64,000 nt of DNA from a virus (IMGVR_UViG_3300012007_000015:16927-80926), one strand, 5' to 3'. Shown: positions 5,907 to 39,157, numbered from the stretch's first letter. Notes: generated by a model not told the origin, from the sequence alone. Numbers and translations are program-made.

Positions 5907-8723
5907 ATGGCAAAAAAGAGAAACGACATAGTATTGGCTCCGTTGGAGGATGGCAACCAAAAGCATGCCATTCGCTCCAACGCAGACATTGTCGCGTTCG
6001 TCGGGCAAACTGGTTCGGGGAAACAAAACCCCATTGATGAGCCTGTTTTAACGGTCAACGGATGGGTTAAAATGGGTGATTTGAAGATTGGTGATGAACT
6101 ATTCTCGCCGCTCAATACAGAACCGTCTTTTGTTACTGGTATTTATCCGCAGGGTGTCAAACCAGTATATAAAGTAACGACAAGCGACGGTCGTGTTTCT
6201 CGCTGCGGACTTGAGCATCTGTGGATGGTTCGTACAGAAAAGCAAGTGGAGAATTGGAGAAAAGGAAAAGGTTCTGCATACATTAAGACGACAAGAGAAA
6301 TATTAGACGAATATATTTCCAAGGGAAAGAATATATTCATCCCACTTGCGAGACCTTACGACGGAAAGGAGAAAGAACTTCCGATTGACCCTTATGTCCT
6401 TGGCGTTTGGCTTGGAGATGGTTGTTCACATCATGATTCTTTTGTGATTTCTGGAGACGAAATTGATGTTATAAAAAAAGTTTCAGACAAACTAAAAACA
6501 ACGTTTCGTTTTCATAGCAGCGAGAACTATAGCAACATGATACACCAGAACGAAAAAGTCTCTTCCGTCAAAAAATATATTAGAGAGTCTGGACTGGATG
6601 TGTACTCGCACGAAAGGTTTATCCCAGAAGAGTATCTGCACGCTTCTGTTGAGCAGCGTATGGAACTGTTGAAAGGATTGATGGATAGCGACGGAAATAT
6701 TGAAGAAAAGAACCGTTACTCTTTCTCTACGACAAGTCCTAAGTTGAAGCGATGTTTCATTGAACTTTGCAGAGGACTTGGTTATATCGTCGGAGAAAAT
6801 AAAGACAGCCGAACACGCTATAAGAGCGGAGAGTGTTGGAAGATAACAATCCAGACGAACGACATAATCTTCAGCAGCAAGAAGCACCTCGACAAATACC
6901 GCGCGAACTTGGAGAAATACAAGAACAAGAATCGTGAGTACAAGCATGACCATGTGCGCATTATAAATATAGAATATGTGGGAGACATGGAGTGTCAATG
7001 TATAATGGTTTCCAACAGAGACCACTTATACTGCACACATGACTATATTGTGACACATAACACAATTGCTTTATATTACGCCCCGATTGAGTACCTTGCC
7101 ATGAATGACAACGCCAAGGCTGTGTGCTTCATGCGTAACGTCGCGGACTTCTGGGCCACTGGTAAGGTCGCGGACACTGTTAAGCAGATGTATCCGCTCG
7201 TTGACAGAGGCGCAGGAAAGAAGCAGCCGCATGACCCGATAGGAGAAATCCGAAGAGGACAGGAGGACATGGGCGTCAAGTTCTACAACGGCTCCGAGAT
7301 TAAGTTCCAGCAGCTTGACAACGAGAGTCCTATCGTGATTGATAAGATTACGAAGGGTCTGCAGGCGAAGATACTTATTTTCGATGAGTGCAACAAGTTC
7401 CTCTGGAGAACCATATCGGCATTCTTCCCGCGCATGCGTTCCGATTCTTCTGGTAAGGCACAGGTGTTCCTTGCACAGAACCCAGAGCGCGAGTGCTTCA
7501 TGCGACAGATGTGTGGAAAGGGAGAGCACGGCGGAGGATGGATTAATGACGACGGCTCTATAGACAAGGATATGGACGGCGTAGTCATGTTCGTGTTCTT
7601 TCCAGACGGTGACTACGAAAGAGCAGTCTGGGGCCGAACTAAGAAAGAAGTATACGAGAAAGGCAAGGAGTGTATAGACAAGCTGCTCGCAATAGACCAA
7701 GATATGTCCTACGAGGACTTTATCCTGTCGTTCGCCTTCTTTACGTTCGATGTGAGAGACAACAAGAAGATGCTCTCAAAGAACAAGAAGTATCGCGGTC
7801 TTGCAGCTAACTCGACGACAGCAAAGTCTTCCTATGAGAACAACTGGAACTACTCTCTCGAAGACGAAAAGGGAGATGCCGAAGACCTCGCGAACGTACA
7901 GCTAAGTAATACGGACGTTGAGCGCATGTTCAGACATATAGAGATTCCCTACGAGAGCCAGTGCATCAAGAAGTTCATGACTGTAGACTATGCTACAACG
8001 GGATTCGATAACTTTGTAATGAAGTATTGGGAGCTGTGGGAGCACTACGGCTTTATCTGCAAGGATATTCAGTTTTCCATGAAGAACTCCAATAAGGAGG
8101 CCGTGATTATGATGATTGACTTCCGCGACCGTCATGGACTTCAGGAAAAGGAGATGATTATCGACGTGCAGGGCTCCACGTTCCTGCGCGACTGCTTCCC
8201 AAGAGCCATCAACTTTGCAGGTGCATCACAGCCTACGGAGCGCTCGAAGGCCCAGTACAAGACTCGCAAAGACGAGGCTGCACACCTCTGCATGGAGATG
8301 ATACAGGCTGGACTCATACACTACGACCCGAAGCTCGCAGATGCAAGGTACAATCACCAGAATATGAAGAGAGAGGGTGCGACCACCGTACTCCGCCACA
8401 TGAAGTTCGAGAGCGTCATCTTCCAGTTTGGAAAGACACCGAACGGGCGCATCACCATGCTCGACAAGGAGAAACAGAAAACCTTCCTCAAAGGTATGTC
8501 TCCAGACCTGTTCGACAATGTCATCATGCTTTGCGGAGGTCTGTATCACACGTGCTATAATATGCTGCGTGACGATGCAGGCATAATGCGCAAGAAGATG
8601 CAGGCGGAAGACATGCTCAGCCTCCTCAACGTAAACGGACGCGAAGAGGTTGACACGAGAATACACCGTGTTAGGAAGATTAGGAATGCAAGCGAAATAT
8701 TAAACGTTTTAAGTACGATATAA
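5907..8723 (+). CDS. terL: Terminase large subunit containing an intein
   Basis: Walker A GQTGSGK/T split by the intein, Walker B ILIFDE, RNase H-like nuclease motifs VDYATTGFD and SPDLFD. Confidence 0.9.
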   Translation: MAKKRNDIVLAPLEDGNQKHAIRSNADIVAFVGQTGSGKQNPIDEPVLTVNGWVKMGDLKIGDELFSPLNTEPSFVTGIYPQGVKPVYKVTTSDGRVSRCGLEHLWMVRTEKQVENWRKGKGSAYIKTTREILDEYISKGKNIFIPLARPYDGKEKELPIDPYVLGVWLGDGCSHHDSFVISGDEIDVIKKVSDKLKTTFRFHSSENYSNMIHQNEKVSSVKKYIRESGLDVYSHERFIPEEYLHASVEQRMELLKGLMDSDGNIEEKNRYSFSTTSPKLKRCFIELCRGLGYIVGENKDSRTRYKSGECWKITIQTNDIIFSSKKHLDKYRANLEKYKNKNREYKHDHVRIINIEYVGDMECQCIMVSNRDHLYCTHDYIVTHNTIALYYAPIEYLAMNDNAKAVCFMRNVADFWATGKVADTVKQMYPLVDRGAGKKQPHDPIGEIRRGQEDMGVKFYNGSEIKFQQLDNESPIVIDKITKGLQAKILIFDECNKFLWRTISAFFPRMRSDSSGKAQVFLAQNPERECFMRQMCGKGEHGGGWINDDGSIDKDMDGVVMFVFFPDGDYERAVWGRTKKEVYEKGKECIDKLLAIDQDMSYEDFILSFAFFTFDVRDNKKMLSKNKKYRGLAANSTTAKSSYENNWNYSLEDEKGDAEDLANVQLSNTDVERMFRHIEIPYESQCIKKFMTVDYATTGFDNFVMKYWELWEHYGFICKDIQFSMKNSNKEAVIMMIDFRDRHGLQEKEMIIDVQGSTFLRDCFPRAINFAGASQPTERSKAQYKTRKDEAAHLCMEMIQAGLIHYDPKLADARYNHQNMKREGATTVLRHMKFESVIFQFGKTPNGRITMLDKEKQKTFLKGMSPDLFDNVIMLCGGLYHTCYNMLRDDAGIMRKKMQAEDMLSLLNVNGREEVDTRIHRVRKIRNASEILNVLSTI
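6024..7061 (+). mobile_element. 346-aa class 3-type intein with LAGLIDADG homing endonuclease, in the TerL P-loop
   Basis: Block A QNPIDEPVLTVNGW, block B CGLEHLW, LAGLIDADG-like LGVWLGDG and LLKGLMDSDG, block F/G CQCIMV...HLY...IVTHN, and Thr+1. Confidence 0.9.
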
Positions 8724-10248: not shown

Positions 10249-10626
10249 ATGGGCTGGATGGAATTTGTACTTGGCATGGCAACACTTGTACTCGGTACTG
10301 GCTGGCTGTTTACATACCACTCTCACAAGAAGAAAGAAGAGGGCGAGGCAACACAATCTGAGGCAAACGGTTGGCTCAAGCAGCAGGAGGTGTACCAACA
10401 CACCATTGAAGACCTTGAGAAAGCCTGTGACTTCATACGTAACGACCGTAACCAGCTACGTGAGGAGAACTCGCGACTTATCTCTGAGAACAACGAGCTA
10501 AGACGCACAGTGGTCGAGTTGCAAAACACTGTATTCGACCTCAAGAAAGAGGTTTCACGCCTCGGAAGACGTGTCGACGCCATGAGTGAGAAAAAGAAGA
10601 AAAACGACAAAAATACGGAAGGATAA
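10249..10626 (+). CDS. Holin-like membrane protein with C-terminal coiled coil
   Basis: One N-terminal hydrophobic helix, then a heptad coiled coil; stop overlaps the lysozyme start. Confidence 0.5.
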   Translation: MGWMEFVLGMATLVLGTGWLFTYHSHKKKEEGEATQSEANGWLKQQEVYQHTIEDLEKACDFIRNDRNQLREENSRLISENNELRRTVVELQNTVFDLKKEVSRLGRRVDAMSEKKKKNDKNTEG

Positions 10627-11105
10627 TGACGCTTATGAAGACATCCCAGAAAGGCATTGACCTTATCAAGAAGTTCGAGGGCTGCAAGTTGTACGCCTAT
10701 CGTGATTCTGTTGGCATCCCGACCGTTGGCTATGGCCACACAAGCGGCGTCAAGATGGGCATGGCTATCACGCAGGCACAGGCAGACAAGTTCCTCGCCG
10801 AAGACCTTGCTGCAGTTGAGTCCGTCCTTAACAAGATGAACATTAACTTCAAGCAGAATCAGTTCGATGCTCTGGCCGCTTGGATATTCAACCTTGGCGA
10901 GGGTAAGTTCAAGGGTTCCACGTTGTACAAGAAAATCGTTGCACGCGCCACTGACCTTGAAATCACTGACCAGATAGTCCGATGGATTAACGCTGGCGGC
11001 AAGCCGTCTCTTGGATTAAAGCGCCGCCGCGTCGCAGAGGCCAACATGTTCTTGGGACGAGACGAATATCGTATTGATGCACAAGGAAATATAAACAAGA
11101 AATAA
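10626..11105 (+). CDS. Endolysin, GH24 phage lysozyme
   Basis: Catalytic E-x8-D-x5-T pattern in FEGCKLYAYRDSVGIPTVGYGHT. Confidence 0.92.
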   Translation: MTLMKTSQKGIDLIKKFEGCKLYAYRDSVGIPTVGYGHTSGVKMGMAITQAQADKFLAEDLAAVESVLNKMNINFKQNQFDALAAWIFNLGEGKFKGSTLYKKIVARATDLEITDQIVRWINAGGKPSLGLKRRRVAEANMFLGRDEYRIDAQGNINKK

Positions 11106-13115: not shown

Positions 13116-13574
13116 ATGACCAAGGAAGAGTATTTTGTAGAAGTATGGCAGAGGAGTATGCGCAACCAAGGATGCTTATCGGTGGTTGCGTGTATCCTCG
13201 TCGCCTTTATTCTGATGCTGTCTTCCTGTGCCACTAAGACAAGAATCGAGTATCGTGACCGCGTTGTAGACCACTATAATACGGTCACGGTACACGATAC
13301 CTTAAAGATACATGATAAGGACAGTGTGTATCATCTTATAAGGGTTGTAAACGATACGGTTTATGATACCAAGGTAATTGAGAAGACAAGATGGAGAGAC
13401 CACGTTATCACAAAGACAGACACCTGTTTTCGAGATAGCGTGCAGACCGAATATAAGGAAACCGTTAAAGAGGTTGTAAAATTTCCAAAGACATACTGGT
13501 ACGCAGTAGGGTTTTCGATACTTTTCTTTATCCTCGTTGCGTACAAGCTTTACGTATTTATAAAAAGATTCTAA
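13116..13574 (+). CDS. Lipoprotein with C-terminal TM helix (candidate unimolecular spanin)
   Basis: Lipobox LSSC after a hydrophobic stretch, beta-rich middle, hydrophobic C-terminus YWYAVGFSILFFILVAYKLY. Confidence 0.55.
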   Translation: MTKEEYFVEVWQRSMRNQGCLSVVACILVAFILMLSSCATKTRIEYRDRVVDHYNTVTVHDTLKIHDKDSVYHLIRVVNDTVYDTKVIEKTRWRDHVITKTDTCFRDSVQTEYKETVKEVVKFPKTYWYAVGFSILFFILVAYKLYVFIKRF

Positions 13575-19586: not shown

Positions 19587-19618
19587 AAACGCCTCGGTGA
19601 AAATCGGGGCGTTTTTTT
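19587..19618 (+). terminator. Rho-independent terminator ending the terminase-tail operon
   Basis: aaacgcctcg-gtgaaaat-cggggcgttt followed by a T run. Confidence 0.85.
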
Positions 19619-19776: not shown

Positions 19777-19807
19777 TTTGAACTACTTTCTTTGGTGCGT
19801 AACTTTG
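19777..19807 (+). promoter_or_regulatory. Bacteroidota sigma-A promoter for the 19.9-23.3 kb cassette
   Basis: TTTG-N19-TAACTTTG exact consensus. Confidence 0.8.
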
Positions 19808-19876
19808 CTGCCGTAACGTTACAACAAAGCGAATTTATAACTAAAAGTTTAACAAATCTAAATCTTACTAAAAGTT

Positions 19877-20803
19877 ATGGCAGAGATTTATCAACTCCCA
19901 AGTGAAAATTCGGGAAACAATGGGGCAAACATCCCCTTCTCAATTCCCATCGGCTTCGGCGGCATGGGTAACAACGGGTTCGGTTTCGGAAACGGAATGA
20001 ACGGCATATACGACCTTCTTGGCGTAGCCATTATTGCATCATTGTTTGGATGGAACAATGGTGGCTTCGGCGGTTTTGGCGGTGGTTTCGGTGGCGCTGG
20101 TGGCGCAGGCTTTATCAGCAACCAACTGAACAATGATAGCGGTCGCGAGTTAATTATGAACGCTATTACCGCACAGGGCGAGGCAGCACGCACAGCCATT
20201 CAGACTATGAGTACAATGGTTGGTCAAGACTTCAACCTCTTAAACGCAGGTATTCAGTCTGCTCAGAACACTCTGAATCAGATTGCCAACCAGCTTGGTA
20301 TGTCTACCTTGCAGATGATTAACGCTGTACAGTCTGGTGACGCTAACGTAATTAGCACCTTGCAGAGCTGTTGCTGTCAGACGCAGAAGCAGATTATGGA
20401 ACAGGGCTACCAGTCTCAGATTGCAACCCTCAACCAGACCAATCAGCTTGGCTCGCAGGCAGACCGCAACACCAATTCGTTGCTGAACGCAATCAACGCA
20501 CAGACCGTTGCAATGAACGACCAGTTCTGCGCAGCCCGTGAGCGTGATATGCAGGCTAAGATTGACACGCAGGCTGACATCATCACTCAGCTTCGTGGTC
20601 AAATAGACAATCAGGCACAGACAAACCAAATTATTGGATACGTCAACAGCGTTATTGCACCTTTGCAGAAAACTGTGACCGAGATTGCTGACAAGCAATT
20701 GCCGACTGTGCCTGTGGTTTATCCGAACATCCAAGCCATCAACAACACTCCGTACATGGGTGGTTTCTACGGCAACGGGTGGAACGGTAATGTTGTATTT
20801 TAA
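19877..20803 (+). CDS. Gly/Phe-rich, TM-containing, Gln/Asn-rich coiled-coil protein with CCC motif (function unknown)
   Basis: GFGGFGGGFGG low-complexity flanks around a hydrophobic helix, long heptads, QSCCCQ. Confidence 0.85.
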   Translation: MAEIYQLPSENSGNNGANIPFSIPIGFGGMGNNGFGFGNGMNGIYDLLGVAIIASLFGWNNGGFGGFGGGFGGAGGAGFISNQLNNDSGRELIMNAITAQGEAARTAIQTMSTMVGQDFNLLNAGIQSAQNTLNQIANQLGMSTLQMINAVQSGDANVISTLQSCCCQTQKQIMEQGYQSQIATLNQTNQLGSQADRNTNSLLNAINAQTVAMNDQFCAARERDMQAKIDTQADIITQLRGQIDNQAQTNQIIGYVNSVIAPLQKTVTEIADKQLPTVPVVYPNIQAINNTPYMGGFYGNGWNGNVVF

Positions 20804-20822
20804 CGCATAAGGAGGCTGGAAT

Positions 20823-21164
20823 ATGGGATGCGCTAATATAACAACTAACGCTGGAGGAATACCGTATCTGAGTACGTCCAACGTGACGATTTCAACTACG
20901 TCGGTAGACCTCGCACTCGGCTGGAATCGGAGGGGTTTACCTCCTGTGGGTTTCTTTACCGTGAGAGTTGCTGACGCTATACCTGCAGACACCACGACAA
21001 CGCTGCCTGTTACGGTAACATTTAACGGTGTTACGCGTAACCTGACTCTGTTCGATGGAACACAGGTGACAGCAGCAGAAATCCTCAACGGCACAGGAGC
21101 CTTGCTTATCTTCAACGACAGGTTCAACAATCTGCTCCAGCTGATGAGCCGTACAACCGTCTAA
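20823..21164 (+). CDS. Small beta-rich hypothetical protein (cassette gene 2)
   Basis: 113 aa Thr/Val-rich ORF in tight operon spacing. Confidence 0.8.
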   Translation: MGCANITTNAGGIPYLSTSNVTISTTSVDLALGWNRRGLPPVGFFTVRVADAIPADTTTTLPVTVTFNGVTRNLTLFDGTQVTAAEILNGTGALLIFNDRFNNLLQLMSRTTV

Positions 21165-21188
21165 TCACAAATCAAAAAAGTAAACATT

Positions 21189-21725
21189 ATGGACTTCAAT
21201 TCATTAGGTAACGGTAATCCGTTCTACGTTCTCCGTAAGGGAGAAAAGCCATACCTTGAAGTTGGTGTGGTCAAGTCAAAGTCTCAGCCGAGGGCCCAGT
21301 ATCCGATGCAGACTCCGAATCTCGGTATCGGCATGCAGATGCAACAGGTCGTCGATGTGACGGCAACCATCAATGGCAAGGACGAGACATTCCAGAATCT
21401 TCCCATAAACGTTGAGATAGCATCAAGGGGTAACGACACGTTCAGCGGTTCGAGGGAGGCGATGCTGCAGGCCGTAGACGCTATGCTGCAGACTTCCAAG
21501 AAGGCCATCGAACAGGTTCCTTATCACAAGGGTGTCATCGCAGAGTCCGAGAAGATGCTCGAATTACTCAATCCTCAGTATGCGGAGAACAAGCAGAACG
21601 CGAGGGTTATCCAGTCCTTGCAGGAGAAGCAGAAGGCACAGGAGCAGCAGCTGGCAGAGCTAAAGGCCCAGAACAGCGAAATGCTCACGATACTGCGACA
21701 GTTGAACGGTGGAGCCGCTACCTAA
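21189..21725 (+). CDS. Hypothetical protein, beta N-terminus plus coiled-coil C-terminus (cassette gene 3)
   Basis: 178 aa ORF with an AT-rich leader. Confidence 0.8.
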   Translation: MDFNSLGNGNPFYVLRKGEKPYLEVGVVKSKSQPRAQYPMQTPNLGIGMQMQQVVDVTATINGKDETFQNLPINVEIASRGNDTFSGSREAMLQAVDAMLQTSKKAIEQVPYHKGVIAESEKMLELLNPQYAENKQNARVIQSLQEKQKAQEQQLAELKAQNSEMLTILRQLNGGAAT

Positions 21726-21761
21726 TGGTAGGAGCCCTGTAAACAAAGAAAGGAAAGTAAT

Positions 21762-21980
21762 ATGGGATATATTTTTGTAGACAGAGATGGCGATGGAATC
21801 CGCAACGAAATGCGGAGGAATATGCGCGAGTCCATGAAACATGACGGCTACAGTCCGATGATGCGCGGTGATTCCGAGAAGGAGCACTGGTATCGTATGG
21901 GCTACAAGGAAGGCTGGCATGACCACGAGGACGAGATGGATATGCGTCGCGCCCGTGACAGCAGAGGCAGGTTCATCTGA
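21762..21980 (+). CDS. Small Arg/Met/Asp-rich protein (cassette gene 4)
   Basis: 72 aa, ends RRARDSRGRFI. Confidence 0.75.
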   Translation: MGYIFVDRDGDGIRNEMRRNMRESMKHDGYSPMMRGDSEKEHWYRMGYKEGWHDHEDEMDMRRARDSRGRFI

Positions 21981-21986
21981 TTTTCA

Positions 21987-22026
21987 AAATAAGGTTGGGG
22001 CGTCTTCGGATTCTCCGACCTTATTT
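21987..22026. terminator. Hairpin with cUUCGg tetraloop, terminator-like
   Basis: aaataaggttgggg-cgtc-TTCG-gatt-ctccgaccttattt. Confidence 0.7.
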
Positions 22027-22135
22027 AGAAAACAAGAAATGAAAAGTAGGTGTTTCCGCTTATTTTATATCAAATTATTTAAATAAGCAGGCTAAAACAT
22101 CCTTAATGTTCAACTTAAAAAGAAAACAAGAAAAT

Positions 22136-22534
22136 ATGAAATACTTAATGTCGGAAGAAGAAGCGGCCTATATGGACTTGTATCATGGTCATTTCAGCAG
22201 GAAGCTTGCTGCGTGGGCCATCGGGAACATGGTCATGGTAGACCCAGCTACGGGAAAGGAGAAGAGCGTCACCATGCACTCTGTAGATGATGTTATGGAA
22301 ATCCTTAAAACGAACGGCGTCAAGATTCCCGTCGAGAGCAAGATAGATGCTTGGTACCTTTACCACATGACACTTGCTGATTATCCAGAGTCACTTACTA
22401 CGGACAAACAGAGGTCTATTTTTGTAGAAGAGACTATCTGCGACCCAGACGGAGAAGACACAAACATCCTCGCATGCTTCGTGGCCAAGATGTGCAACAA
22501 AGGTGTGCCTATTTACTGGGAGGAGTTTGCATGA
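22136..22534 (+). CDS. Helical hypothetical protein (cassette gene 5)
   Basis: MKYLMSEEE start preferred over the upstream ATG at 22106. Confidence 0.75.
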   Translation: MKYLMSEEEAAYMDLYHGHFSRKLAAWAIGNMVMVDPATGKEKSVTMHSVDDVMEILKTNGVKIPVESKIDAWYLYHMTLADYPESLTTDKQRSIFVEETICDPDGEDTNILACFVAKMCNKGVPIYWEEFA

Positions 22535-22920
22535 AACAGGCTTATCTCAAATTTCCTCGTAACGAGTGGGGTGTCGTTGTAGTATGCGACTTTGATACGG
22601 ACTTGGAGTATGATGAGATGTATGAGCAGCTCAGAAGCTTCGGAATGAGCCAGTACAACATCAAGAAAGCGTTGAACATACTTTCCGCATACAACACTGG
22701 TATGCACGTAAGCAATAACACGCTCAAGATGTCGGCCATATACATCTCTAATACGACAACGCCGAGCGAATGGTGGGACACTGCGGCCCATGAGCTTGCC
22801 CATACCGTAGTATCCATTATAGACCACTACAATGTGCCGTATTACTCTGAGGACGCGGCATATCTTGCTGGATTCTTAATGAAGCAGCTCGTGGAGCAAG
22901 TTGCGGAGCCATGCAAATAA
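22531..22920 (+). CDS. HExxH metallopeptidase-like protein (cassette gene 6)
   Basis: ATGA-coupled start at 22531; AAHELAH plus downstream EDAAY. Confidence 0.7.
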   Translation: MKQAYLKFPRNEWGVVVVCDFDTDLEYDEMYEQLRSFGMSQYNIKKALNILSAYNTGMHVSNNTLKMSAIYISNTTTPSEWWDTAAHELAHTVVSIIDHYNVPYYSEDAAYLAGFLMKQLVEQVAEPCK

Positions 22921-22944
22921 TTAACCAAACAAAACAGTAAAACT

Positions 22945-23289
22945 ATGGAAAGAGAAAAGCTATTGAAGGAGTACGAGGCCACACTTGAGAGCCTTATCGA
23001 GAAGACGAAGTTCGTTTATTCTGAGGAGTTCTATACACTCGATGAAATCGAAAAACAGAAGTACACCAAGGACAAGCTGGCGACAGAGGGTCATCTTGGC
23101 ACACTCTGTAATATCCTGTGGGGTAAGAATCAGTTCTCCATGGGCGGCATGTCAGACCTGTTTGCCTTGGGTATCATCGGCTCTATGTTTGGAGGCGGTT
23201 GGGGCAATACTCCGTTACCCTCATTTGGTAGCGAAGGAACCCTCAAGAACGAGCTGAATGTTGGCGCCGATGAGCAAGAACGCAAATAA
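22945..23289 (+). CDS. Hypothetical protein with Gly-flanked hydrophobic C-terminal helix (cassette gene 7)
   Basis: 114 aa; DLFALGIIGSMFGGGW segment. Confidence 0.75.
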   Translation: MEREKLLKEYEATLESLIEKTKFVYSEEFYTLDEIEKQKYTKDKLATEGHLGTLCNILWGKNQFSMGGMSDLFALGIIGSMFGGGWGNTPLPSFGSEGTLKNELNVGADEQERK

Positions 23290-23344
23290 AGCCCGACAAG
23301 AGCGTTTCTTGGTGTCGGCGGATAAGTTCAGGGAGGATATGAAA

Positions 23345-23384
23345 AATCCCGTCAGAGGCAAATGAAATGGCCAAAGACGGGATT
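23345..23384. terminator. Hairpin between convergent operons
   Basis: aatcccgtc...gacgggatt 9-bp inverted repeat; a second hairpin lies at ~23293-23318. Confidence 0.6.
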
Positions 23385-23404
23385 CTCCGTGTCGTTATGC
23401 CTCG

Positions 23405-24572: not shown

Positions 24573-26108
24573 TTAAAGGTGGTTTAATCTTTTTGTTAAT
24601 ATGTTTTCTATATTGTCAAATTCGGTATAAGGTATCTCGATAAGTTTTATCTTGTGTTCCTTACAATATTGGCGAACAGCATTATCCCTTTTTTGCTGGT
24701 GTGCAAATCTCTCTTCGTTGTCAACAAATCCAGTAGGACGATAATGTTGTTCTCCTTGGTATTCTATTGCAACATTTAATGACGGAATAAAAAAGTCAAG
24801 ATACATTCTTTTGTTTTCGCAAAACAAAGATTCATTATTTATCTTGTACTGCGTTTCGTAGTTTATACCAAATTTGTCTAAGCATAACATAACCTTTTCT
24901 TCGCCCCTTGATATACTACAACGTGGACAACCACTCCCCTGTAAATGAGCGTTTGCGATTTGTTGAAAATCACCATGCTTTCGACAAGTTATAGTCACGG
25001 GCATATTGTCCTTTACGTATTCAGTATGCTCGTAAGAATACCTATCCCCATGTACCTTTTTTGCTTTTTCTATAAACATTTCTGTGGTATGTCTTAACGA
25101 TAATGATTGTTCTAACAATGCACAATTCGGGCATCCACTACCCATTAAATGCGAATTTGGTGCTTGAAAAAAGTGCGTTCCGCATTTTTTGCAAATAATT
25201 TCAACAGGCTCTCTTGAATATTTGTAATCGACAAGCGAATAGTCATATTTGTCTCCATGTTTTTGTCTTGCTAAGTCAATAAAACGGCTGGTTGTATATT
25301 TGCCAAAACCGTCACATTGTGGACATCCGTAACCTCGCAAGAAATACTTCGGTTTTACAGAGAAATCTCCATGCTCTTTGCATACGACTATGATTGGCGT
25401 GTTGACATTTATGAAATCTGCTTTTGACATATCAAACCTATCTCCGTACAATTCGTTTACACGACGCAAAAACTCTTCTTTTGACATAGCCTTGGAATCA
25501 TGCAGCAAATCGTATGCACATTGCGGGCACCCATTACCATTTAAGTGATTTATTGCTTTTTGACGAAACACTCCGTGAGAATGGCATATAATATCAACAA
25601 ATGATGAAGCACCATTAAAGTTTTCTTTTGTAATCAAAGAGTAATCATATCTATCACCGTGTATTTCTTTGGCACGTTCGATAAAGTTTTCATAAGTTAT
25701 TCTAAAACTTTCTTTCATGCACTCCTTACATCCACACCCATGCAGGTGACTTTGTGCGTTCTGCAAAAAATCCCCGTGTTTTGGGCATGTAATACACACC
25801 TTTGTGCGCTTATTTACATACTCTGTCTTATCGTAATTATATTTATCACCATGAACAATCCTTGCCTGTGCAACAAATTCATCGGTTGTTCTTCTTTGAT
25901 GATTTGCACGTTCTTCTGTTCTGCATTTTATACACCCATGTCCCAGCAAATGATTGGTTGGCGTTTGCCAAAAACTACCATGTTTAGGACAAATAATCTC
26001 TACTTCTACATGGCAACCTTTGTATTCAACCTTTGAATAGTCGTACTTATTACCATGCACTTTTATTGCATCGGCAATAAATTGTTCTTTTGTCTTTTTC
26101 CCTTTCAT
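24573..26108 (-). CDS. Free-standing homing-type endonuclease: six Cys/His repeats (DUF723-like) plus C-terminal Vsr/DUF559-like nuclease
   Basis: Six ~65-aa HGDKYDYS...C.KHG.F.Q....HL.G.GC..C repeats; LDFFIPSLNVAIEYQGEQHY...RD nuclease motif; AT-richer than flanks. Confidence 0.85.
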   Translation of the reverse strand: MKGKKTKEQFIADAIKVHGNKYDYSKVEYKGCHVEVEIICPKHGSFWQTPTNHLLGHGCIKCRTEERANHQRRTTDEFVAQARIVHGDKYNYDKTEYVNKRTKVCITCPKHGDFLQNAQSHLHGCGCKECMKESFRITYENFIERAKEIHGDRYDYSLITKENFNGASSFVDIICHSHGVFRQKAINHLNGNGCPQCAYDLLHDSKAMSKEEFLRRVNELYGDRFDMSKADFINVNTPIIVVCKEHGDFSVKPKYFLRGYGCPQCDGFGKYTTSRFIDLARQKHGDKYDYSLVDYKYSREPVEIICKKCGTHFFQAPNSHLMGSGCPNCALLEQSLSLRHTTEMFIEKAKKVHGDRYSYEHTEYVKDNMPVTITCRKHGDFQQIANAHLQGSGCPRCSISRGEEKVMLCLDKFGINYETQYKINNESLFCENKRMYLDFFIPSLNVAIEYQGEQHYRPTGFVDNEERFAHQQKRDNAVRQYCKEHKIKLIEIPYTEFDNIENILTKRLNHL

Positions 26109-32331: not shown

Positions 32332-35121
32332 TTACATCTCTGCCTGCATAGCCTCGACAATCTGCTGTGCGCGCTCCTCGTCAGAGAGAGCCTTGAACAC
32401 AACCATCTCGGTCATTGTGTCCGTATACTCCTTCTCGCGTGCGAGTACGGCCTCTACGAACTGCTTGTTGGTCATGTCCTCTTTCTTCTCGTCGAGGATG
32501 ACGTGAAGACGTGCGATATTGTGCATGTAAGTCTCGTATAAAAGGAAAGCGTCCGTCTCGTTCTCGCCGAGCCCATACAGGGGAGCGAAGATATTGTTGA
32601 GCCACTTGTCGACAATCCAAGCGATATTATACTCGGTGTCGTCCTGCTTCTCCTTGAGCACGTCCATCATCTTCTTGTATGAGCGCGTCGGATTGCCCTT
32701 GGCATCCTTGACCACACAGTCGTTTTCAAGGGCCATCTCAATCATGCGCTTGATATAGAGGTACGGTCTGGATATACCAGAGGCCACTATACGATGGAAT
32801 ACGTGTGTATGAAACATTGTTCCAACGGTGGCAAAGTCATTGTTAACGTAAAGGCGGAGCCACTTGTCCCCGAAGAACACCTCCGACCCGTCACTCGTTC
32901 TCTCAACAACGATTAATGCGTTTCTGAGTCTGCGCTCAAGCTGAGCAGCCGTTGGTTTCTTCTCCTGTCTGATTGGTTTTGCTGTCATAATGATTATTGT
33001 GTTTCTTCTATATACTTGTCTATTTCTTTGATTCTTGCCTCCATCTGCCGTATGGCGTTTTCGATGGTAGCAGTAGGATAGCTTTCAAGAACGTCCTTCA
33101 AAACGACGACTTGTACGTAAAGCCTGTTCCTTGTAACTGCTATATTCTTCTTATCCATTAGGCGTCTGGATTCTGCTGTGACTTCCAGATGGCCAGCAGC
33201 CGCAGCTTGATAGTCTCCTCGTTGGTAGGGAGCTTACCCTTAATCTTGTTTGTTTTGTTGTAGCTCTTGAGCCAAGCCACAGCCTCTTCAAGGTTTGTTA
33301 TCTCTGGGAAGCACCACTCGTTTTCAGGAACGTCCTTTGCGCCAGCGTCTGCTCCGTCAGCCTCGATTTCTGCTGCTTCGTCAACAAGGGTTTGCGCGGC
33401 CTTGCGTGATTCCTCGTCGAGGTCGGCGTTTTCAATCTCCTCGGTATCCATGTATTCAGGAACGACGAAAATTTCTTCGATTTTCGAGAACGGCTCAAGC
33501 GAAAATGTCTTCTTGACCCTCGGTGCCTTATCTGTCGCTGCATCGTATGTCGCTACAGCGTACGCCCGATAACCACCTCTCATCTCAAGAACAGCTACGC
33601 CATTCTTAAAAGACTTCTTTGGGTCTTCGTGCTTTTTTAACGGTATCGACGGAATATTCAGATACCGCAAAACTTCCTTTTCAAATTCTATTGTCATAAT
33701 ATATGGTTTTAATGATTTCTATAAAAAGCAACTACTTATTTTCCCAAACTTTCGTTGCAAAACCTAATAACATAAAAAAATAAGAACACTACTCTCGGTG
33801 CAAAGTTACGAATTACTTTGTATATGCCAAAATAATTATATGTTTTTAACATAAAAATTATTTGATTCCAAGGCTGCTCTTAACGGCGGCAATTTTCGTC
33901 AGCCCTTCTTTCGTGGGCTTTCCATCCTTGCCGAAAGGAACGAGAATCTGCAGGTTGTGATGTATCTGCACAAACTTCCACCCGCTTTTGATTCGCTCTC
34001 GCTCCAGTTTCTTTACTTTTTCGAGGATGGTCTTTTCCTTGGACTTGTCGTCCACCCTCTTTTCCATTATCCAATTTGTCGACGTTGCCATAATAACTAA
34101 TTACAAACCTTTACCGTTTTTCCTACTTGTTTGTTAGAAATGAAAGACTTAAACGGTGTGACTACCGTTTCCTTCTTCTCTACGTCAACAACCTGTGACG
34201 CCGTATAGACATTCTCTGTGTCTTCATCGCTGAGTCTCTTTGCGACCATAATTGCGCTTGCTTTATCCATGTTTGTCTCAACAGTATATTGCTTGTGCTC
34301 TTTCTGGTCGTATTTATTAACACACCAGCTCTCCCCAACGACAGAGGATTCCCTCTCGATTTCGCATTTGAACAGCCGAAGGGTTCTATCCTCGTCGCCA
34401 AAGTCTATTCTTATTACTGTATCAGTATCGTCCTCTATACGCTGCTGCCCTCCGAGTTGCCAAGCCTCTGGTAGCTGTGCCCATCGCATGATGTTATGGT
34501 ACAGCGTCTCAGACTCTTCGTTCATCTCGTTTGTCCCGTAGCTTTCTGCGTAGAAATCAGACCAAAACTTAATGAATTGCTGATATGCCTTGTCGAGGTC
34601 GTTACATGCCTTTGCGATGTCATACCTGCGGCCACCAAAACTATCGAGAAGGGCTACAGCGTTGCCGAAGACCCTATATGCCGCCATGATGGATGCGTGA
34701 TACGTCGTCAGAAGTTTGGATATTCGGTCGTACACGCCGAGCTCGCGAGCCTTCTCAAGACTAAGGCCCCTGATGCCAGCGGCCTTAATCCTTTTATGCA
34801 CATCTTCTGACACGTCTACGTTAAACGGCAGCTCTATCGTTTCATATTTGTCCATTTACTTCGATATAAGTTAACCTCAGTGCGCCTATGTTTTCAAACA
34901 TAATGCTAAGCGTTTAAATTCTTGAACAGTCCGCCATTCTTCACGAATGCCTTGATGGGCACCTTGCAATACGTTACACCTCCGTAAGAGACGTCCACAA
35001 TCGGACAGTCAACGAACAGGTTCCTATACTTTACGTCAACAAGGACGACATACTTTGGCATGCGTAGCTCCCTTTCGAGCCCGCTATGCGAATGTAGTTG
35101 TACAACACCTACAGACATCAT
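32332..35121 (-). CDS. Hypothetical proteins (32332-32988, 32994-33158, 33158-33697, 33858-34091, 34097-34855, 34906-35121)
   Basis: Tightly packed co-oriented ORFs with no recognisable motifs. Confidence 0.65.
33801..33831 (-). promoter_or_regulatory. Bacteroidota sigma-A promoter
   Basis: TTTG-N19-TAACTTTG. Confidence 0.8.
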
Positions 35122-35990
35122 TTACCTCCTCTCTTTTTGCCGTTGTTATCCTCTTCTGCGTCATCGAAGTCTGCGAACTTTTCGGCAACCTCCTGAGCCT
35201 TCTGTGCGTCTGCAATCTGTTGCTGCATGTCTCCTTCGTTGTCTATATACTCGTACTTGTCCTTCTCGAATTGGATGCTCTGGTCAGCTTTGATAGCGTC
35301 CTGCATCTCTACGGAAAGAGGGGCGTTGCGAGACAGGTTGAGTTTAATAACCGTCTTCTTGGCCATATCATCGAAATCGGTAGTCCACTTACTCTCCTGT
35401 CTTACGTTATCGTATTTCGAGTGGTATGTCTGGGAATAACGGAGAGCATGCGCCTCCATCTCCTCGATAGACATGTAAAACGTGGACTCGGCACCGTTAA
35501 GAAGGCGGAAATAGCTTGCATAGCCTATGGTCTTTGCGTTGGCGCGTTCTGTGTCGTTGTCGATGAACTTGAATACGCACTCACCTGTAAGACGGTTCCT
35601 GCTTATCAGCTCGCCCTCCTTGATTTCTGTCGCATTAGGGATGATTGCAAACTGTCCGCTTCTGAGTGCGAGCTGCTTAACCCCTTTATAACCCAACTGG
35701 AACTGGGCCACAACGGTTCCCTGCTTATTGTTCTTGTACGGGATACAGAACGCCATACCGAGAGACTTGTCGAGCGGTAGGTTAAGTGCTGTTGCTTTAA
35801 GCGCTGCGAACACAATTGTTGCAGGGACACATTCCTGAAGCTTTACGTCTCCAGCGACAAGGGCTGTAACATTGTTTACGAAGGAACCCTTACGCTCCTT
35901 GAGAATGTCCTCAAGATACTTCTGCCACACAGGGCTTGTGATGGTCTGGTTAAACAGCTGCAGACCTGTCATTTTCTTTTCTTCTGCCAT
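35118..35990 (-). CDS. recT: RecT/Bet-family single-strand annealing recombinase
   Basis: LNLPLDKSLGMAFCIPY...QFQLGYKG...WTTDFDDMAKKTVIK. Confidence 0.9.
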   Translation of the reverse strand: MAEEKKMTGLQLFNQTITSPVWQKYLEDILKERKGSFVNNVTALVAGDVKLQECVPATIVFAALKATALNLPLDKSLGMAFCIPYKNNKQGTVVAQFQLGYKGVKQLALRSGQFAIIPNATEIKEGELISRNRLTGECVFKFIDNDTERANAKTIGYASYFRLLNGAESTFYMSIEEMEAHALRYSQTYHSKYDNVRQESKWTTDFDDMAKKTVIKLNLSRNAPLSVEMQDAIKADQSIQFEKDKYEYIDNEGDMQQQIADAQKAQEVAEKFADFDDAEEDNNGKKRGGK

Positions 35991-36154
35991 AGTCTGTTAC
36001 TTTTGTTTCTTTAGTTTCTTACTCTTCAAATGGTTGTGACGCGCTTTTGTACTACCAATGTAATACATTCCGAACCCATCTGGGTTTCCGTGCATAACTT
36101 TTGTTGTTACTCCAATGTACTTTCCCATAATTTTAAATTTTTAAAATGTTATTT

Positions 36155-37147
36155 TTATTTCTTGTTTACACCTATTTTCACGTATGCCCCCTTAGACACG
36201 CGCTTCTCGTAGTCCTTGCGTAGTTTCTTCGCTTTACGAGGATGCTTGTCTCCGAGGTCTGCGAGGAACTTCTTGTGGTCAAACTGTACAGACTCAGATG
36301 CCTCTACGAGGGTAATACTCCACTCTTCGCTCTTGATGCTGCGGATGCCCTTCTGCTGCATAAAGTCAACCATCTTGGCCTTAAACTCGTCGATAGTCTT
36401 CTCTCGCTCCTTAATCTCTGCCAGCACCTGCGATATTGTGTCGAACTCTTTCTTGACTTTTTCTGGAAGATACTGTGCCTGTATATCTCCCTCGTCATCT
36501 GCATAACAGTCAAACGTCTGGAGAAATTCACTTGCAATCTTCATGGCGTTTGAGATGTCGAAGAGGTTTTCCTTCATACGGAGCTTGTGTACGGTCAGAC
36601 GCGCAGGGTCGAACGTAAACTCTTCCTCCATGTTAACGCCAGACGTATCGTAATGAACGAGGAACATGTTGACCTTCCAGTCTTCACCCTTTGCTTTGAC
36701 GATTTCCTTTGCAATCGTCCACTCGACGAACAGCTGGTTCTTGTAAGTGTCACGTGTCTGGTCTATCGAAAAGCGTGTGGCTTTAACCTCGTAGACGTTA
36801 AGAACCTTCTTCTCCTCGTCGAAGTACGCAATATCTGCATGGCAGATTAGCTTCAGTTCCTTGGTTGAATACTTGCCAGACACCCACAGAGGGTTGCTTT
36901 GTGCGCTCGGTTTAGTTGCCGCTAAATTGTCGTAGACAGCGTTCTCGATGAAGTCACCGAACTGCATCACACGTGTGGTTATGTTGTCATTCTCTATCAG
37001 TCCCTTCGCAACAGCGAGCCTCTTGTACGCACTACGTGGCACTTTTTCAAGAGATGCAATCTGCGAAAGGATATTGGCGTCAGAGCCACCAAAACAGCCC
37101 TTTCTTGTGGAGTTTATATCCTCCTTGTATTCATACTGTTGTTCCAT
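36155..37147 (-). CDS. YqaJ/lambda-exo-like recombination exonuclease
   Basis: RKGCFGGSDA...FGDFIE...HADI...YEVK...Q motifs; adjacent to recT. Confidence 0.8.
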   Translation of the reverse strand: MEQQYEYKEDINSTRKGCFGGSDANILSQIASLEKVPRSAYKRLAVAKGLIENDNITTRVMQFGDFIENAVYDNLAATKPSAQSNPLWVSGKYSTKELKLICHADIAYFDEEKKVLNVYEVKATRFSIDQTRDTYKNQLFVEWTIAKEIVKAKGEDWKVNMFLVHYDTSGVNMEEEFTFDPARLTVHKLRMKENLFDISNAMKIASEFLQTFDCYADDEGDIQAQYLPEKVKKEFDTISQVLAEIKEREKTIDEFKAKMVDFMQQKGIRSIKSEEWSITLVEASESVQFDHKKFLADLGDKHPRKAKKLRKDYEKRVSKGAYVKIGVNKK

Positions 37148-37153
37148 ATAGAT

Positions 37154-37504
37154 TTAATTGTTACTGTTTGATAATATTTCAAAACTCTTGATTTGTACGA
37201 ACAACTGAAGTACCGCCATACCCCTGTAATCCGTTTTCGAGGTCTGGAGCCTTCCTTCTACCTCGATGTGCATTCCCCTCTTGAGTCCTGCCTCCTTGAG
37301 TTCATCGACAAGTTTTCTCTTCCTCTGGTTAAAAACCATGATTCTGATGAAGTTTCTCGATTCAGAGACGATGTCGCTTTCGTATTCTTTTGAGTCGCTG
37401 GTTATAATCTGGAAACTGCAGTACTCCCTACCAGTTACAGCAGTACCCCAGATTACCTTGTCGCCAACATATCCTCTCAATTTTACGTGATTTTCAAACT
37501 TCAT
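37154..37504 (-). CDS. ssb: Single-stranded DNA-binding protein
   Basis: NHVKLRGYVG...IEVEGRLQT OB-fold pattern. Confidence 0.8.
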   Translation of the reverse strand: MKFENHVKLRGYVGDKVIWGTAVTGREYCSFQIITSDSKEYESDIVSESRNFIRIMVFNQRKRKLVDELKEAGLKRGMHIEVEGRLQTSKTDYRGMAVLQLFVQIKSFEILSNSNN

Positions 37505-37508
37505 GCTG

Positions 37509-37540
37509 CAAAGTTACAACTTTCGCTTGGAATATGCAAA
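37509..37540 (-). promoter_or_regulatory. Bacteroidota sigma-A promoter abutting the ssb start codon
   Basis: TTTG-N20-TAACTTTG, then only CAGC before the ATG. Confidence 0.8.
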
Positions 37541-37644
37541 CCTATTAACGTTTTTAACAGTTCACGTACACTTGCATTATTCTAACGAGGATACGTCTCT
37601 CAGCAGCAGGCCGTTTGGCTGTCTTGCAATATATGCTCTCATCG

Positions 37645-38451
37645 TCAGTCCTCCTTATCATCAAACATCTTTAGTAGTTCCGTTAGCACATCCGACTTGC
37701 CAAGATAGAGCATAAAACTGGGGTCGAGCGATTTATCCTTCTTCTTTGGCTTGTATTTGTCAGCGGCCTTGCAATAATGGTCACGCAGCTCCTCTATCTC
37801 TTGCCGTGTGAGCGTGATTTTATCGCCATCTATTGTACAATCATGCCATACCATAGTCAGTCCTCCTTCATTTTCTTAAAGCATTTCAATACTTCTTGAC
37901 AGTACTCTTCTTCCGACATAGTTTTTAAGCGTTCCTCCATAGAATCGTCGTTAGCAATAACATCTGTGGCATCTAATATGTCAGCAATGTCCTTCCAAGT
38001 CAGTTCCAAGTCTTTCTCTGCTTGGTGTTCATCTGCCCATTCTGCACCCTTTATGAAAGCCTGACCAAGTAATATGCAAAGATTTCTTCTAAATTCACCA
38101 GTAGGCTTTATGTCATCTAAATTATTAGCATAGTCTAATGCTGCCTGCATTATTTCTTTACTTCTTTCTTCTGCCTTACTCATTTCCTATCGTTTTTATT
38201 TTGTTGTTAAACACCTCTACGAAATGTAGGATATGCGTGTCTGTGCTGTCATTTACACAATCCATCATAAACTCTCTAAAAAGTTTAGAAAGTTCCTCCT
38301 TAATATCTTTTTCTGCTTGGTGGTAGCCTTTCTCAAATGCGTTTCTTCTTTCTTGTTGAAGGTTTGTTTTGTCATACCCCATTCTTTCACCAAATAGGAT
38401 TGGAAACGTCTCTAATGCCTTTTTTGCGGCTTTATCTTCTGCCTTGCTCAT
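37645..38451 (-). CDS. Three small hypothetical proteins (37645-37854, 37857-38183, 38176-38451)
   Basis: Two share the MSKAE start and an HQAEKD motif. Confidence 0.65.
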
Positions 38452-38455
38452 AGTT

Positions 38456-39154
38456 CTATTTGTATTGTTTTAACACATCACTACATATCTCCAAGACTTT
38501 TACGACCTTATCAAGGTCAAACCAATCATCAGTCCTTACACCGCTTTCCATATCAATCCAGAAATCATCCACGTCATCACTTTCAAGTAGGTATGAGAGC
38601 TTGCCTGCCACGTTATCTGCATTGATGCCTCCAGCATATCCAATCTTATGTGGCAGATTCAATATCTCAATAGGCGTGTCGATGCCTTGTCCTCCACTGG
38701 CATCAAGAAGGCATGTAATGTGGCGACTTACTTTGCTGTTGAGGAATAATGGCACCTCACGAGCCGACTTCTGTTGTAAAATGACTTCGTCAAAATAATT
38801 GCAGATTTCGCCCGAATAGTCAAAACTCATGGGGTTGTTTTGTGATGTAGCTACGTTGAGTTGACAGCGGTTAAAAATGTAGCTATAACCACGCGCCCAT
38901 TCTCTGAATGGTTCTATATCTCCTCTTACAGCCGCACGAGCTATGCTACCACAAAGATGTGCGGACAGATTGAGTCCGCGATTTTCTAAAGAGTCCAGAT
39001 AACTTGGGTTGAAATAACGATTGCCGTTGTCCTTCCAGTTCTTAGCAACCAATACACCCCATTCCACCATCGGGTACTTCTGTTGAATTTCCCATAATGC
39101 ACCGAGGTCAGTTTTACCATCGATGCCTGTAAATGTAATGTGTTGTAGTTTCAT
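38456..39154 (-). CDS. Phosphoribosylanthranilate isomerase (TrpF)-like TIM-barrel protein
   Basis: LLDASGGQG, GYAGGINADNV and WIDMESGVRT motifs. Confidence 0.7.
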   Translation of the reverse strand: MKLQHITFTGIDGKTDLGALWEIQQKYPMVEWGVLVAKNWKDNGNRYFNPSYLDSLENRGLNLSAHLCGSIARAAVRGDIEPFREWARGYSYIFNRCQLNVATSQNNPMSFDYSGEICNYFDEVILQQKSAREVPLFLNSKVSRHITCLLDASGGQGIDTPIEILNLPHKIGYAGGINADNVAGKLSYLLESDDVDDFWIDMESGVRTDDWFDLDKVVKVLEICSDVLKQYK

Positions 39155-39157
39155 AAT

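Follow-up and report, generated by a model that had tools for sequence, protein, structure and literature searches.

What does a phage make of seven adjacent genes that resemble none of its standard parts? The question is raised by a block of genes, here called g1 to g7, in a 64-kb stretch of DNA (the window, 64,000 nucleotides) taken from the 80.9-kb virus record IMGVR_UViG_3300012007_000015. A first reading made from the sequence only had described positions 19777-23289 as a self-contained seven-gene cassette centred on g1, a Gly/Phe-rich membrane protein with a coiled coil and a Cys triplet, and had proposed that it encodes a dedicated multi-protein system. All seven plus-strand open reading frames (ORFs) are present, from 19877 to 23289, and the cassette with its transcription signals is laid out as follows.

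19587-19614, plus strand: intrinsic terminator with a 12-bp stem and T-run (folding free energy, dG, -17.9 kcal/mol; z -3.8)
19777-19807, plus strand: Bacteroidetes-type promoter, TTTG-N20-TAACTTTG, ending 70 nt before the ATG of g1
19877-20803, plus strand: g1, 308 aa
20823-21164, plus strand: g2, 113 aa
21189-21725, plus strand: g3, 178 aa
21762-21980, plus strand: g4, 72 aa
21978-22034, plus strand: internal hairpin with a c(UUCG)g loop, between g4 and g5 (dG -25.9, z -5.4)
22106-22534, plus strand: g5, 142 aa, a DUF7841 protein
22531-22920, plus strand: g6, 129 aa, its ATG at 22531 overlapping the g5 stop as ATGA
22945-23289, plus strand: g7, 114 aa
23341-23388, minus strand: strong hairpin followed by a minus-strand U-run (dG -24.7, z -4.8)

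Judged by its homologues, g5 likelier begins at the ATG at 22136. The longest ORF over g6 is 22474-22920, and its true start is the ATG at 22531. The codon composition of the cassette is that of the core genes of the phage and unlike that of its AT-rich islands.

The cassette is one selected, mobile, multi-protein unit. Searches with g1 recovered 65 loci from viral contigs and 63 more from prokaryote genomes; 118 loci were fetched, and the other cassette genes were sought in them by tblastn and then with hidden Markov models (HMMs) from alignments built here. Besides g1 (118 loci), g3 was found in 112 of the 118, g2 in 98, g5 in 96 and g6 in 88. Two g4-like families occupy the same position in 35 and 11 loci, and g7 was found in only 12. 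The gene order g1-g2-g3-(g4)-g5-g6-(g7), on one strand, is almost always kept across these loci, while the flanks of the cassette are unconserved from one locus to the next. This combination of fixed order and unrelated flanks gives good support to the proposal of a dedicated multi-protein system; the genes do co-occur in other genomes, and profile searches assigned none of them a known unrelated function. At 90% identity the g1 family falls into more than 7,100 clusters; at 50% identity it has 719 representatives (E<=1e-3), nearly all of about 300 aa. No cluster carries a Pfam domain or an informative name. In about 20 loci an opposite-strand HNH endonuclease gene lies between g2 and g3 (for example L005:7319-7945, minus strand), and the cassette tolerates such homing-endonuclease insertions between its own genes.

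The carriers are viral contigs from rumen and gut and many rumen and gut metagenome-assembled genomes (MAGs). Among them are crAss-like phages of several families (cr273_1, cr52_1 and others), the 151-kb phage csAssE-Sib, the cultured Bacteroides phage C3_41T2LP, and prophages in isolates of Parabacteroides segnis, P. leei, Paraprevotella xylaniphila and Bacteroides sp. ET71. HMMER searches found no match to the cassette in crAss001, crAss002 or DAC15, and a nucleotide search of the cassette DNA against 50,697 phage records gave no match. The earlier expectation of similar gene strings in gut and rumen phages and mobile elements holds for phages and prophages; no case outside a phage context was found in a survey that took in the commonest neighbour genes rather than every locus. 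Three low-GC contigs of 61-92 kb (loci L124, L125 and L135) are filed in Firmicutes (Bacilli, Coprovivens) MAGs. These MAGs hold a crAss-type major head gene, in at least one case on the cassette's own contig, so we read the three as misbinned crAss-like contigs and reject the Gram-positive hosts they would imply. Two further matches in Gram-positive MAGs (L093 and L099) fall outside this explanation. We find no good evidence for monoderm hosts. We tentatively regard the cassette, at well under even chances, as an accessory module that passes horizontally between phages infecting gut diderm bacteria.

The central protein, g1, is a coiled-coil rod with a hydrophobic anchor; its length is controlled, and its Cys triplet is invariant. 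It belongs to phrog_16490 (6e-33) and has no Pfam match. A short acidic N-tail leads into a Gly/Phe-rich tract, a hydrophobic helix, a second Gly-rich tract, the rod, and a Pro/Gly/aromatic tail; the GFGG tracts flanking a hydrophobic helix and the QSCCCQ motif noticed at first sight are thus as described. The hydrophobic helix covers approximately residues 44-59, with a core of about 15 residues and the family consensus DLFGLAIIASMFGW. The best-conserved block of the protein, GRELIMNAI..QGEA, follows the second Gly-rich tract and precedes the rod, which takes up residues 78-273 and carries the triplet (CCC) at 165-167. CCC is invariant in 38 aligned g1 sequences and present in 110 of 113 unique relatives. 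Toward the C-terminus a conserved PxTVPVxYP...N motif is followed by the Gly/aromatic tail, which in the window ends in Phe; an aromatic residue stands among the last three positions in 97 of the 113 unique relatives, and a final Phe in 62.

The length of the rod is quantised. Across the family the spacing from GRELIM to CCC is only 65, 72 or 76 residues, and that from CCC to the C-terminal motif is 95, 99, 106, 110, 117, 128 or 146. Steps of 4, 7 and 11 residues are the signature of a coiled coil that keeps its register and whose length matters. In the last third there is a clean 3.5-residue hydrophobic period. An AlphaFold2 (AF2) model of the g1 monomer is unreliable, with a mean predicted local distance difference test (pLDDT) score of 44.8; its secondary structure, short helices over residues 78-152 and one helix over 156-273, fits the layout derived from the alignment. 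The rod is also very poor in charge. Charged residues make up 9.1% of g1, 12.8% of its rod and 10.6% of g2 (family-wide medians 10.4% for g1 and 10.7% for g2), against 17-34% in the other proteins scored in the window, head and tail proteins included, and the rod is lower in charge than every other protein scored except g2. Both g1 and g2 are rich in Thr, Asn and Gln, and their low charge lies in the same direction as that of the head and tail proteins of the window phage, only more extreme.

A similar protein is found in coliphage T5, in the operon T5.077-T5.079 (38064-39671 in AY734508). T5.077 (321 aa) occurs in 223 phage records, mostly of Escherichia and Salmonella phages, where it is always annotated as hypothetical. 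Like g1 it has a Gly/Phe-rich tract, a hydrophobic helix, a Gly-rich tract and a low-charge rod with CCC; the rod, which contains ECCCE, is 12.6% charged, compared with 12.8% in g1. An hhalign comparison of the g1 family with T5.077 gave a probability of 94.6% and an E of 7e-8 over 40 of about 300 columns, and no member of the g1 family matches PHROG 8119, the family of T5.077. As in the cassette, there is an own promoter (P12), here with a bidirectional terminator, and there are small low-complexity or Cys-rich partners: T5.078 is Gln/Met-rich, and T5.079 (64 aa) has four Cys pairs and ends in Trp-Phe. The two systems differ in that the N-tail of T5.077 is 60 residues long, charged and His-rich (45% charged), whereas that of g1 is short; the T5 operon has three genes only, with no visible counterpart of g2, g3, DUF7841 or the g6 peptidase, and its hosts are Enterobacteria. 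The st0 deletion (33667-41891 in GenBank AY734508) covers T5.077-079, and T5st0 is a viable laboratory phage (doi:10.1101/2022.09.22.509047); the operon is therefore dispensable for laboratory growth. Converging on it is T5.080 (L070:1792-2739, minus strand), a single-transmembrane band-7/SPFH (stomatin/prohibitin-like) protein that is also inside the st0 deletion, a second membrane-organising accessory gene at the same spot.

For g1 we infer a topology with the N-terminus inside and the rod outside. The N-tail of T5.077 is charged and would hardly pass through a membrane, g7 has its charged domain on the N-terminal side of the same helix, and the composition of the rod is unlike that of cytoplasmic coiled coils.

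The partners of g1 were scanned against Pfam and PHROGs, which returned only PHROGs of unknown function and DUF7841. Profile searches of the PDB with g1, g2, g3 and g6 gave only coiled-coil noise (for example apolipophorin III, OspC and GCN4-tagged fusions), the ESM Atlas only unnamed viral clusters, and PADLOC models no match at E<=1 to eight proteins. The characters first assigned to the partners from the sequence are borne out. The second gene product, g2 (phrog_31654), has the sequence pattern of a small beta-strand protein of very low charge, with no signal peptide and no match in the PDB profile search. It carries a Cys near its N-terminus, and a disulphide link between g1 and g2 was considered; 35 of 93 g2 relatives lack any Cys, which weakens that idea. 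The next protein, g3 (phrog_28898), had been read as a beta and coiled-coil protein, and its AF2 model (pLDDT 85.8) has an N-terminal six-strand SH3-like barrel and three helices, the last 44 residues long, with 24% charged residues in the C-terminal half. Its best structural match (Z 6.5) is to EF-P/eIF5A domain I and to Tudor/chromo folds; going by the model, this resemblance is that of a shared common fold and not a functional match, and a Foldseek search of BFVD returned only uncharacterised crAss-like proteins. The Arg/Met-rich peptide g4 is 43% charged, rich in Arg, Met, Tyr and Gly, and conserved at its ends (MGYI... and ...RDSRGRF-I) with a variable middle. It is probably disordered, and looks like a linker with two short binding motifs.

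The distal genes form a pair and a variable end. By its sequence pattern g5 is helical, as first noted, and it matches Pfam PF25223 (DUF7841) at 2e-10, with 41.2 bits against a gathering cut-off of 25.2 (phrog_38431). The HExxH protein g6 has the motif HELAH and a Glu 16 residues downstream, and H87, E88, H91 and E107 are invariant in 31 sequences; on this pattern it can be specified as a minimal HExxH...E zinc peptidase (a zincin) of about 130 aa. Matches to the SprT-like (PF10263) and M78 (PF06114) families reach best E values of 0.012 and 0.0019, in 4 and 3 of the 31 members respectively, and are below the cut-offs; the PolyVal family is absent from the profile matches, and the g6 homologue of C3_41T2LP is annotated as a PolyVal-type peptidase. 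At the g5/g6 junction a 4-nt overlap is commonest (21 loci) and most junctions are within 9 nt. Because this short junction recurs in related loci, we take g5 and g6 to be translationally coupled, which probably makes both proteins in step. The last protein, g7, occurs only in the sub-lineage around the window. It has a charged helical N-domain followed by a hydrophobic helix that echoes the helix of g1, as had been suspected; hhalign of the two alignments gives E 3.7e-5 and a probability of 71%. Beyond singleton, probably chimeric calls, no longer fused forms of g1 or g5 were found.

The transcription signals largely agree with the earlier description. A promoter does follow a strong terminator, which would end the upstream transcript of the tail fibre and of g0 (a gene described below) and insulate the cassette, and the internal cUUCGg hairpin is present. 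That hairpin is likely an attenuator or RNA-stability element that separates g1-g4 from g5-g7. In a rough test, the corresponding intergenic sequence had more structure than its shuffled versions in 58 of 79 loci; some of the stretches tested include an unrecognised g4. Of the convergent terminators claimed for the 3' end, one stands: the minus-strand hairpin at 23341-23388, which terminates the converging minus-strand genes and is the sole strong structure there. A plus-strand hairpin after g7 has no significance (z +0.6). A pattern search found 10 sites of the promoter motif in the window where 1.8 were expected, and these precede operons, including the terminase gene and several opposite-strand operons. 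We had considered the promoter as a clue to expression timing and reject it, given that the motif fronts these operons as well.

What, then, might the unit do? Its topology, oligomeric state, partners, substrate, expression timing and role are here inferred, and the account we put forward, as a tentative preference held at less than even chances, is that of a conditional accessory envelope module made late in infection. The roles first suggested for it, envelope remodelling, superinfection exclusion or a secreted assembly, are still candidates. In this scheme g1 would insert its single Gly-flanked helix into the inner membrane, with the short N-tail in the cytoplasm and the nearly uncharged coiled-coil rod of about 190 residues pointing outward. 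The rod would oligomerise and be locked by the Cys triplet, as a disulphide ring or a metal site, and the strand-like motif and aromatic Gly-rich tail could touch the wall or the outer membrane. The proteins g2, g3 and g4, made with g1 from the promoter-proximal half, would serve as partners or assembly helpers, while g5 and g6, coupled in translation behind the attenuating hairpin, would probably process or regulate the assembly. As a tail-anchored copy of the g1 helix, g7 could pair or compete with g1 in the membrane. The role would be a conditional one, in lysis timing, envelope stabilisation or superinfection exclusion, rather than lysis itself, because an endolysin and a u-spanin-like gene are already present in the window phage and the T5 operon is dispensable.

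Several observations weigh against this account. Positively charged residues are nearly absent beside the g1 helix, so the positive-inside rule leaves its topology unfixed, and the hydrophobic core of about 15 residues could alternatively be a monotopic anchor. Cys counts show no even-number bias, and to our knowledge Bacteroides may lack a periplasmic disulphide-forming system, which weakens the disulphide lock. A strict host-type promoter stands upstream of g1 in only 14 of 116 loci. The likeness to T5 is weak as far as descent goes: it consists of the architecture and the 40-column hhalign match, which falls short of sequence homology over most of the protein. HMMER found no match between the T5 proteins and the g1 family at E<=1, and CCC lies near the C-terminus of T5.077 but in mid-protein in g1. 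The proteins g2 to g6 have no signal peptide or transmembrane segment, and without an export signal they cannot reach the g1 rod if that is periplasmic. The chief difficulty is that none of g2 to g6 has a route out of the cytoplasm, and yet g2 shares the low-charge make-up of g1.

With no exit from the cytoplasm for g2 to g6, two other explanations stay alive. In one, g1 is an intermediate-filament-like protein on the cytoplasmic side, attached by a monotopic helix, cross-linked through Cys or metal and joined by g2-g4 into a membrane-attached scaffold that organises late events. All partner proteins lack export signals, as this would have it, and the hydrophobic core of g1 is short (about 15 residues) with uncharged flanks. 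The head-rod-tail layout, the Gly/Tyr/Arg-rich g4 and the Cys pairs of T5.079 recall keratin and its associated proteins, a likeness of composition only. We nevertheless consider such a scaffold quite improbable, as the 12.8% charge of the rod contrasts with 24% in the C-terminal half of g3 and 34% in a 125-aa transmembrane coiled-coil protein of the same phage, and g1 has no sequence or fold match to bacterial filament proteins.

The other explanation, which we hold to be unlikely though less so than the scaffold, is a virion-associated structure. Here g1 and g2 would make up a fibre, or a membrane-inserting protein that the particle carries and ejects, with g3 and g4 as chaperones or scaffold and g5 and g6 in maturation. 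Relatives of g1 have been annotated previously as 'outer capsid protein/viral fiber' or 'spike protein', the low-charge, Thr/Asn/Gln-rich composition of g1 and g2 goes in the direction of head and tail proteins, and the missing export signal of g2 suits cytoplasmic assembly. Structural genes surround the cassette in crAss-like genomes: it has tail genes on one side and endolysin, terminase and portal genes on the other, or stands immediately ahead of the major head gene. The putative split into a high and a low expression half resembles a structural protein with its protease, and the PolyVal-type annotation of the C3_41T2LP g6 homologue points the same way; such peptidases were reportedly tied by Iyer and colleagues in 2017 to packaged, injected proteins. 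Against all this, the cassette moves among phages with different gene sets (siphovirus-type in the window, crAss-like phages and a 151-kb phage), which virion parts rarely do, and it carries its own promoter and often its own helix-turn-helix (HTH) gene. It is absent from crAss001, crAss002 and DAC15, cultured crAss-like phages whose virions have been analysed, and T5st0 grows routinely in the laboratory without the look-alike operon. Fold and profile searches found no fibre, decoration or ejection protein match.

The surroundings of the cassette bear further on these choices. All neighbour genes of the 118 loci were clustered and the commonest clusters inspected; 102 loci were evaluable upstream. 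The cassette occupies late or lysis-proximal positions. A small HTH gene lies directly 5' of g1 in 49 of the 102 loci and belongs to four unrelated families (L015:1504-1728, L017:5667-5936, L063:5292-5606 and L023:3822-4133 are examples); four families in one slot suggest a dedicated regulator that has been repeatedly swapped. The window has no HTH gene directly upstream of g1. A convergent tyrosine integrase gene is found downstream in 24 loci, and within 6 kb downstream of g1 in 14 of 102, which indicates that in temperate phages the cassette closes the late arm beside the attachment site.

This position at the prophage end is what would be expected of a moron expressed from the prophage, a membrane complex protecting the lysogen by superinfection exclusion or another form of lysogenic conversion. 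The host-type promoter behind a terminator, the presence of the cassette in isolate prophages, the membrane-anchored protein it includes and the dispensability of its T5 counterpart all agree with such a role. Still, the cassette is also found in the late block of crAss-like phages and, in look-alike form, in T5-like phages, and both groups are, as far as is known, virulent. Its five or six conserved genes go far beyond what any known exclusion system needs, PADLOC gave no match, and the same promoter type precedes the terminase operon and so is uninformative on lysogenic expression. A prophage-expressed moron is on balance distinctly unlikely.

The same-strand neighbours upstream of g1 include several endolysin families, multi-transmembrane holin-like proteins and a family with a lipoprotein signal and a C-terminal transmembrane (TM) segment, an architecture known from the unimolecular spanin (u-spanin) of phage T1. 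At least 38 of the 102 loci have a lysis-type gene on the same strand no more than 3.5 kb before g1. The lipobox family (neighbour cluster 6) stands just upstream of g1 in 20 of 102, and the window phage has a member of it at 13116-13574. This phage has a siphovirus-type gene set and is a relative of C3_41T2LP (large terminase subunits 53% identical). Its plus-strand block starts with the terminase gene (5907) and finishes with the cassette, which closes the terminase-to-tail strand. The main genes of this block, and one gene beyond it, are these.

5907-8723, plus strand: terminase large subunit, 938 aa
After the terminase, plus strand: probable portal protein, 505 aa
10249-10626, plus strand: 125-aa protein with an N-terminal TM helix, charged coiled coil and Lys-rich tail, directly 5' of the endolysin gene
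10626-11105, plus strand: endolysin
After the endolysin, plus strand: tail-tube-like and leucine-rich-repeat proteins
13116-13574, plus strand: u-spanin-like protein, 152 aa, lipoprotein signal ...MLSSC, C-terminal TM segment; its gene follows that of the endolysin by 2 kb
After the 13116-13574 gene, plus strand: fibre, 1851 aa
19142-19567, plus strand: g0, 141-aa HExxH membrane protein with HENIH and then hydrophobic segments, phrog_15610 'protease'
24573-26108, minus strand: 511-aa HNH/homing-endonuclease-like protein with repeated Cys-rich modules

The proximity of lysis genes suggests a further reading, that of a one-piece spanin or fusogen. The N-terminal helix of g1 would hold it in the inner membrane and its aromatic tail would reach the outer one, and at lysis the protein would fold back in the manner of a class I fusion protein and merge the two. 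The sequence-only reading had been drawn to membrane fusion by the order of parts in g1, and the order (Gly-rich hydrophobic peptide, helices, Cys cluster, heptads, aromatic tail) does resemble that of a class I fusion protein; the rod length is also tightly kept, as expected of a part that spans the periplasm. The fusion idea is weakened by the u-spanin-like protein at 13116-13574 and by its family upstream of g1 in at least 20 related loci. A phage that already has an endolysin and such a gene probably does not use g1 as its spanin, and in the strict sense of a spanin the reading is rejected. In addition, none of the cassette proteins has a signal peptide with a lipobox, so a lipoprotein partner is missing and five cytoplasmic partners are left unexplained, and the T5 look-alike is dispensable, whereas loss of a spanin blocks lysis under standard conditions. 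Overall, a one-piece spanin or fusogen is a very improbable identity for g1.

A few other features of the window phage were recorded. The alignment of its terminase large subunit with that of C3_41T2LP begins only at residue 379, and PHROG matches to the N-terminal part include primase and helicase-loader families. The 125-aa protein at 10249-10626 has weak PHROG matches to 'hol-like' and Rz-like spanin families and could be a holin or an i-spanin-like candidate. The g0 gene sits just before the upstream terminator of the cassette, and members of its family recur in 9 loci at roughly 2.4 kb upstream of g1; g0 may belong loosely to the cassette as an eighth gene. The 511-aa HNH gene has a GC content at third codon positions (GC3) of 0.31, compared with about 0.55-0.65 in its neighbours, and for that reason looks like a recent insertion.

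Among the Bacteroidales phages of gut and rumen, crAss-like ones too, the cassette ranks with the most widespread conserved multi-gene units. Beyond DUF7841 in g5 and the peptidase motif of g6, its proteins match no curated family, whether of lysis, virion, replication or defence, in line with the first impression that they fit no standard phage function. We found no curated family or paper describing the unit, and nothing in the literature on T5.077, C3_41T2LP or DUF7841. New here are the quantised rod lengths, the extreme low charge of g1 and g2, the coupling of g5 and g6, the neighbour census with its integrase, lysis and swapped HTH genes, the separate u-spanin-like gene in the window phage, and the evidence from the st0 deletion that the T5 operon is dispensable. 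Systems suited to experiment are C3_41T2LP on B. uniformis, the isolate prophages, and the similarly built operon of T5, a phage with easy genetics and a natural deletion mutant. Control of lysis timing, exclusion or envelope integrity by the module, if borne out, would matter for the persistence of these abundant phages in dense gut communities.

Among known systems, the spanins (lambda Rz/Rz1 and T1 gp11) invite comparison. In Rz spanins a coiled coil goes together with a TM segment and with Cys links between molecules, and g1 likewise has a membrane anchor, a coiled coil and conserved Cys. Spanin genes sit next to holin and endolysin genes and are made late, a setting that g1 would share, and g1 could span the periplasm; unlike a spanin it has no lipoprotein component, is larger, comes with five soluble partners and coexists with a T1-gp11-like protein. 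As regards holins, which are small membrane proteins encoded beside the endolysin, g1 has one hydrophobic helix; its gene lies 8.8 kb from the endolysin gene in the window, and related loci already have multi-TM holin-like genes upstream. The T4 holin T with its antiholins RI and RIII offers a different parallel: a single-pass membrane protein with a large extracytoplasmic domain and regulators on both sides of the membrane, in a system that is accessory and conditional, and the helix shared by g1 and g7 recalls holin/antiholin pairs. There is no sequence or fold similarity to T, and the long rod of g1 contrasts with a globular domain. A class I fusion protein is reminiscent in the order of its parts, and g1 lacks the C-terminal TM segment. 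The minimal zincins (SprT/Wss1-like, ImmA/IrrE M78 and PolyVal-type) share with g6 the HExxH motif and the downstream Glu. Unlike ImmA, g6 has no adjoining HTH repressor, and it is coupled to DUF7841 instead of being fused to a DNA-binding or polyvalent domain.

The Cys triplet invites a comparison of working only. In COMP, the matrilins and the collagen III knot, Cys rings stand at the ends of extracellular oligomeric coiled coils, and neighbouring Cys residues where a long oligomeric helix begins could tie the chains of g1 together covalently in the same way; these proteins are eukaryotic and have no homology to g1. Oxidation in the envelope of an anaerobe is doubtful, and a metal site is equally possible for CCC. 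It is also conceivable, though again we would put it at clearly less than an even chance, that the cassette is an undescribed phage machine of crAss-like and other Bacteroidales phages, reduced in T5-like coliphages and outside the lysis, virion, replication and defence classes. In the most unusual version of this idea, the Phe-Gly and Tyr-Gly tracts on either side of the g1 membrane helix and at the end of its rod might form a cohesive phase in or on the membrane, as in nucleoporins or PEX13, and this phase, held by the rods and trimmed by the coupled peptidase, might gate or plug the passage of macromolecules as infection ends or in a superinfection.

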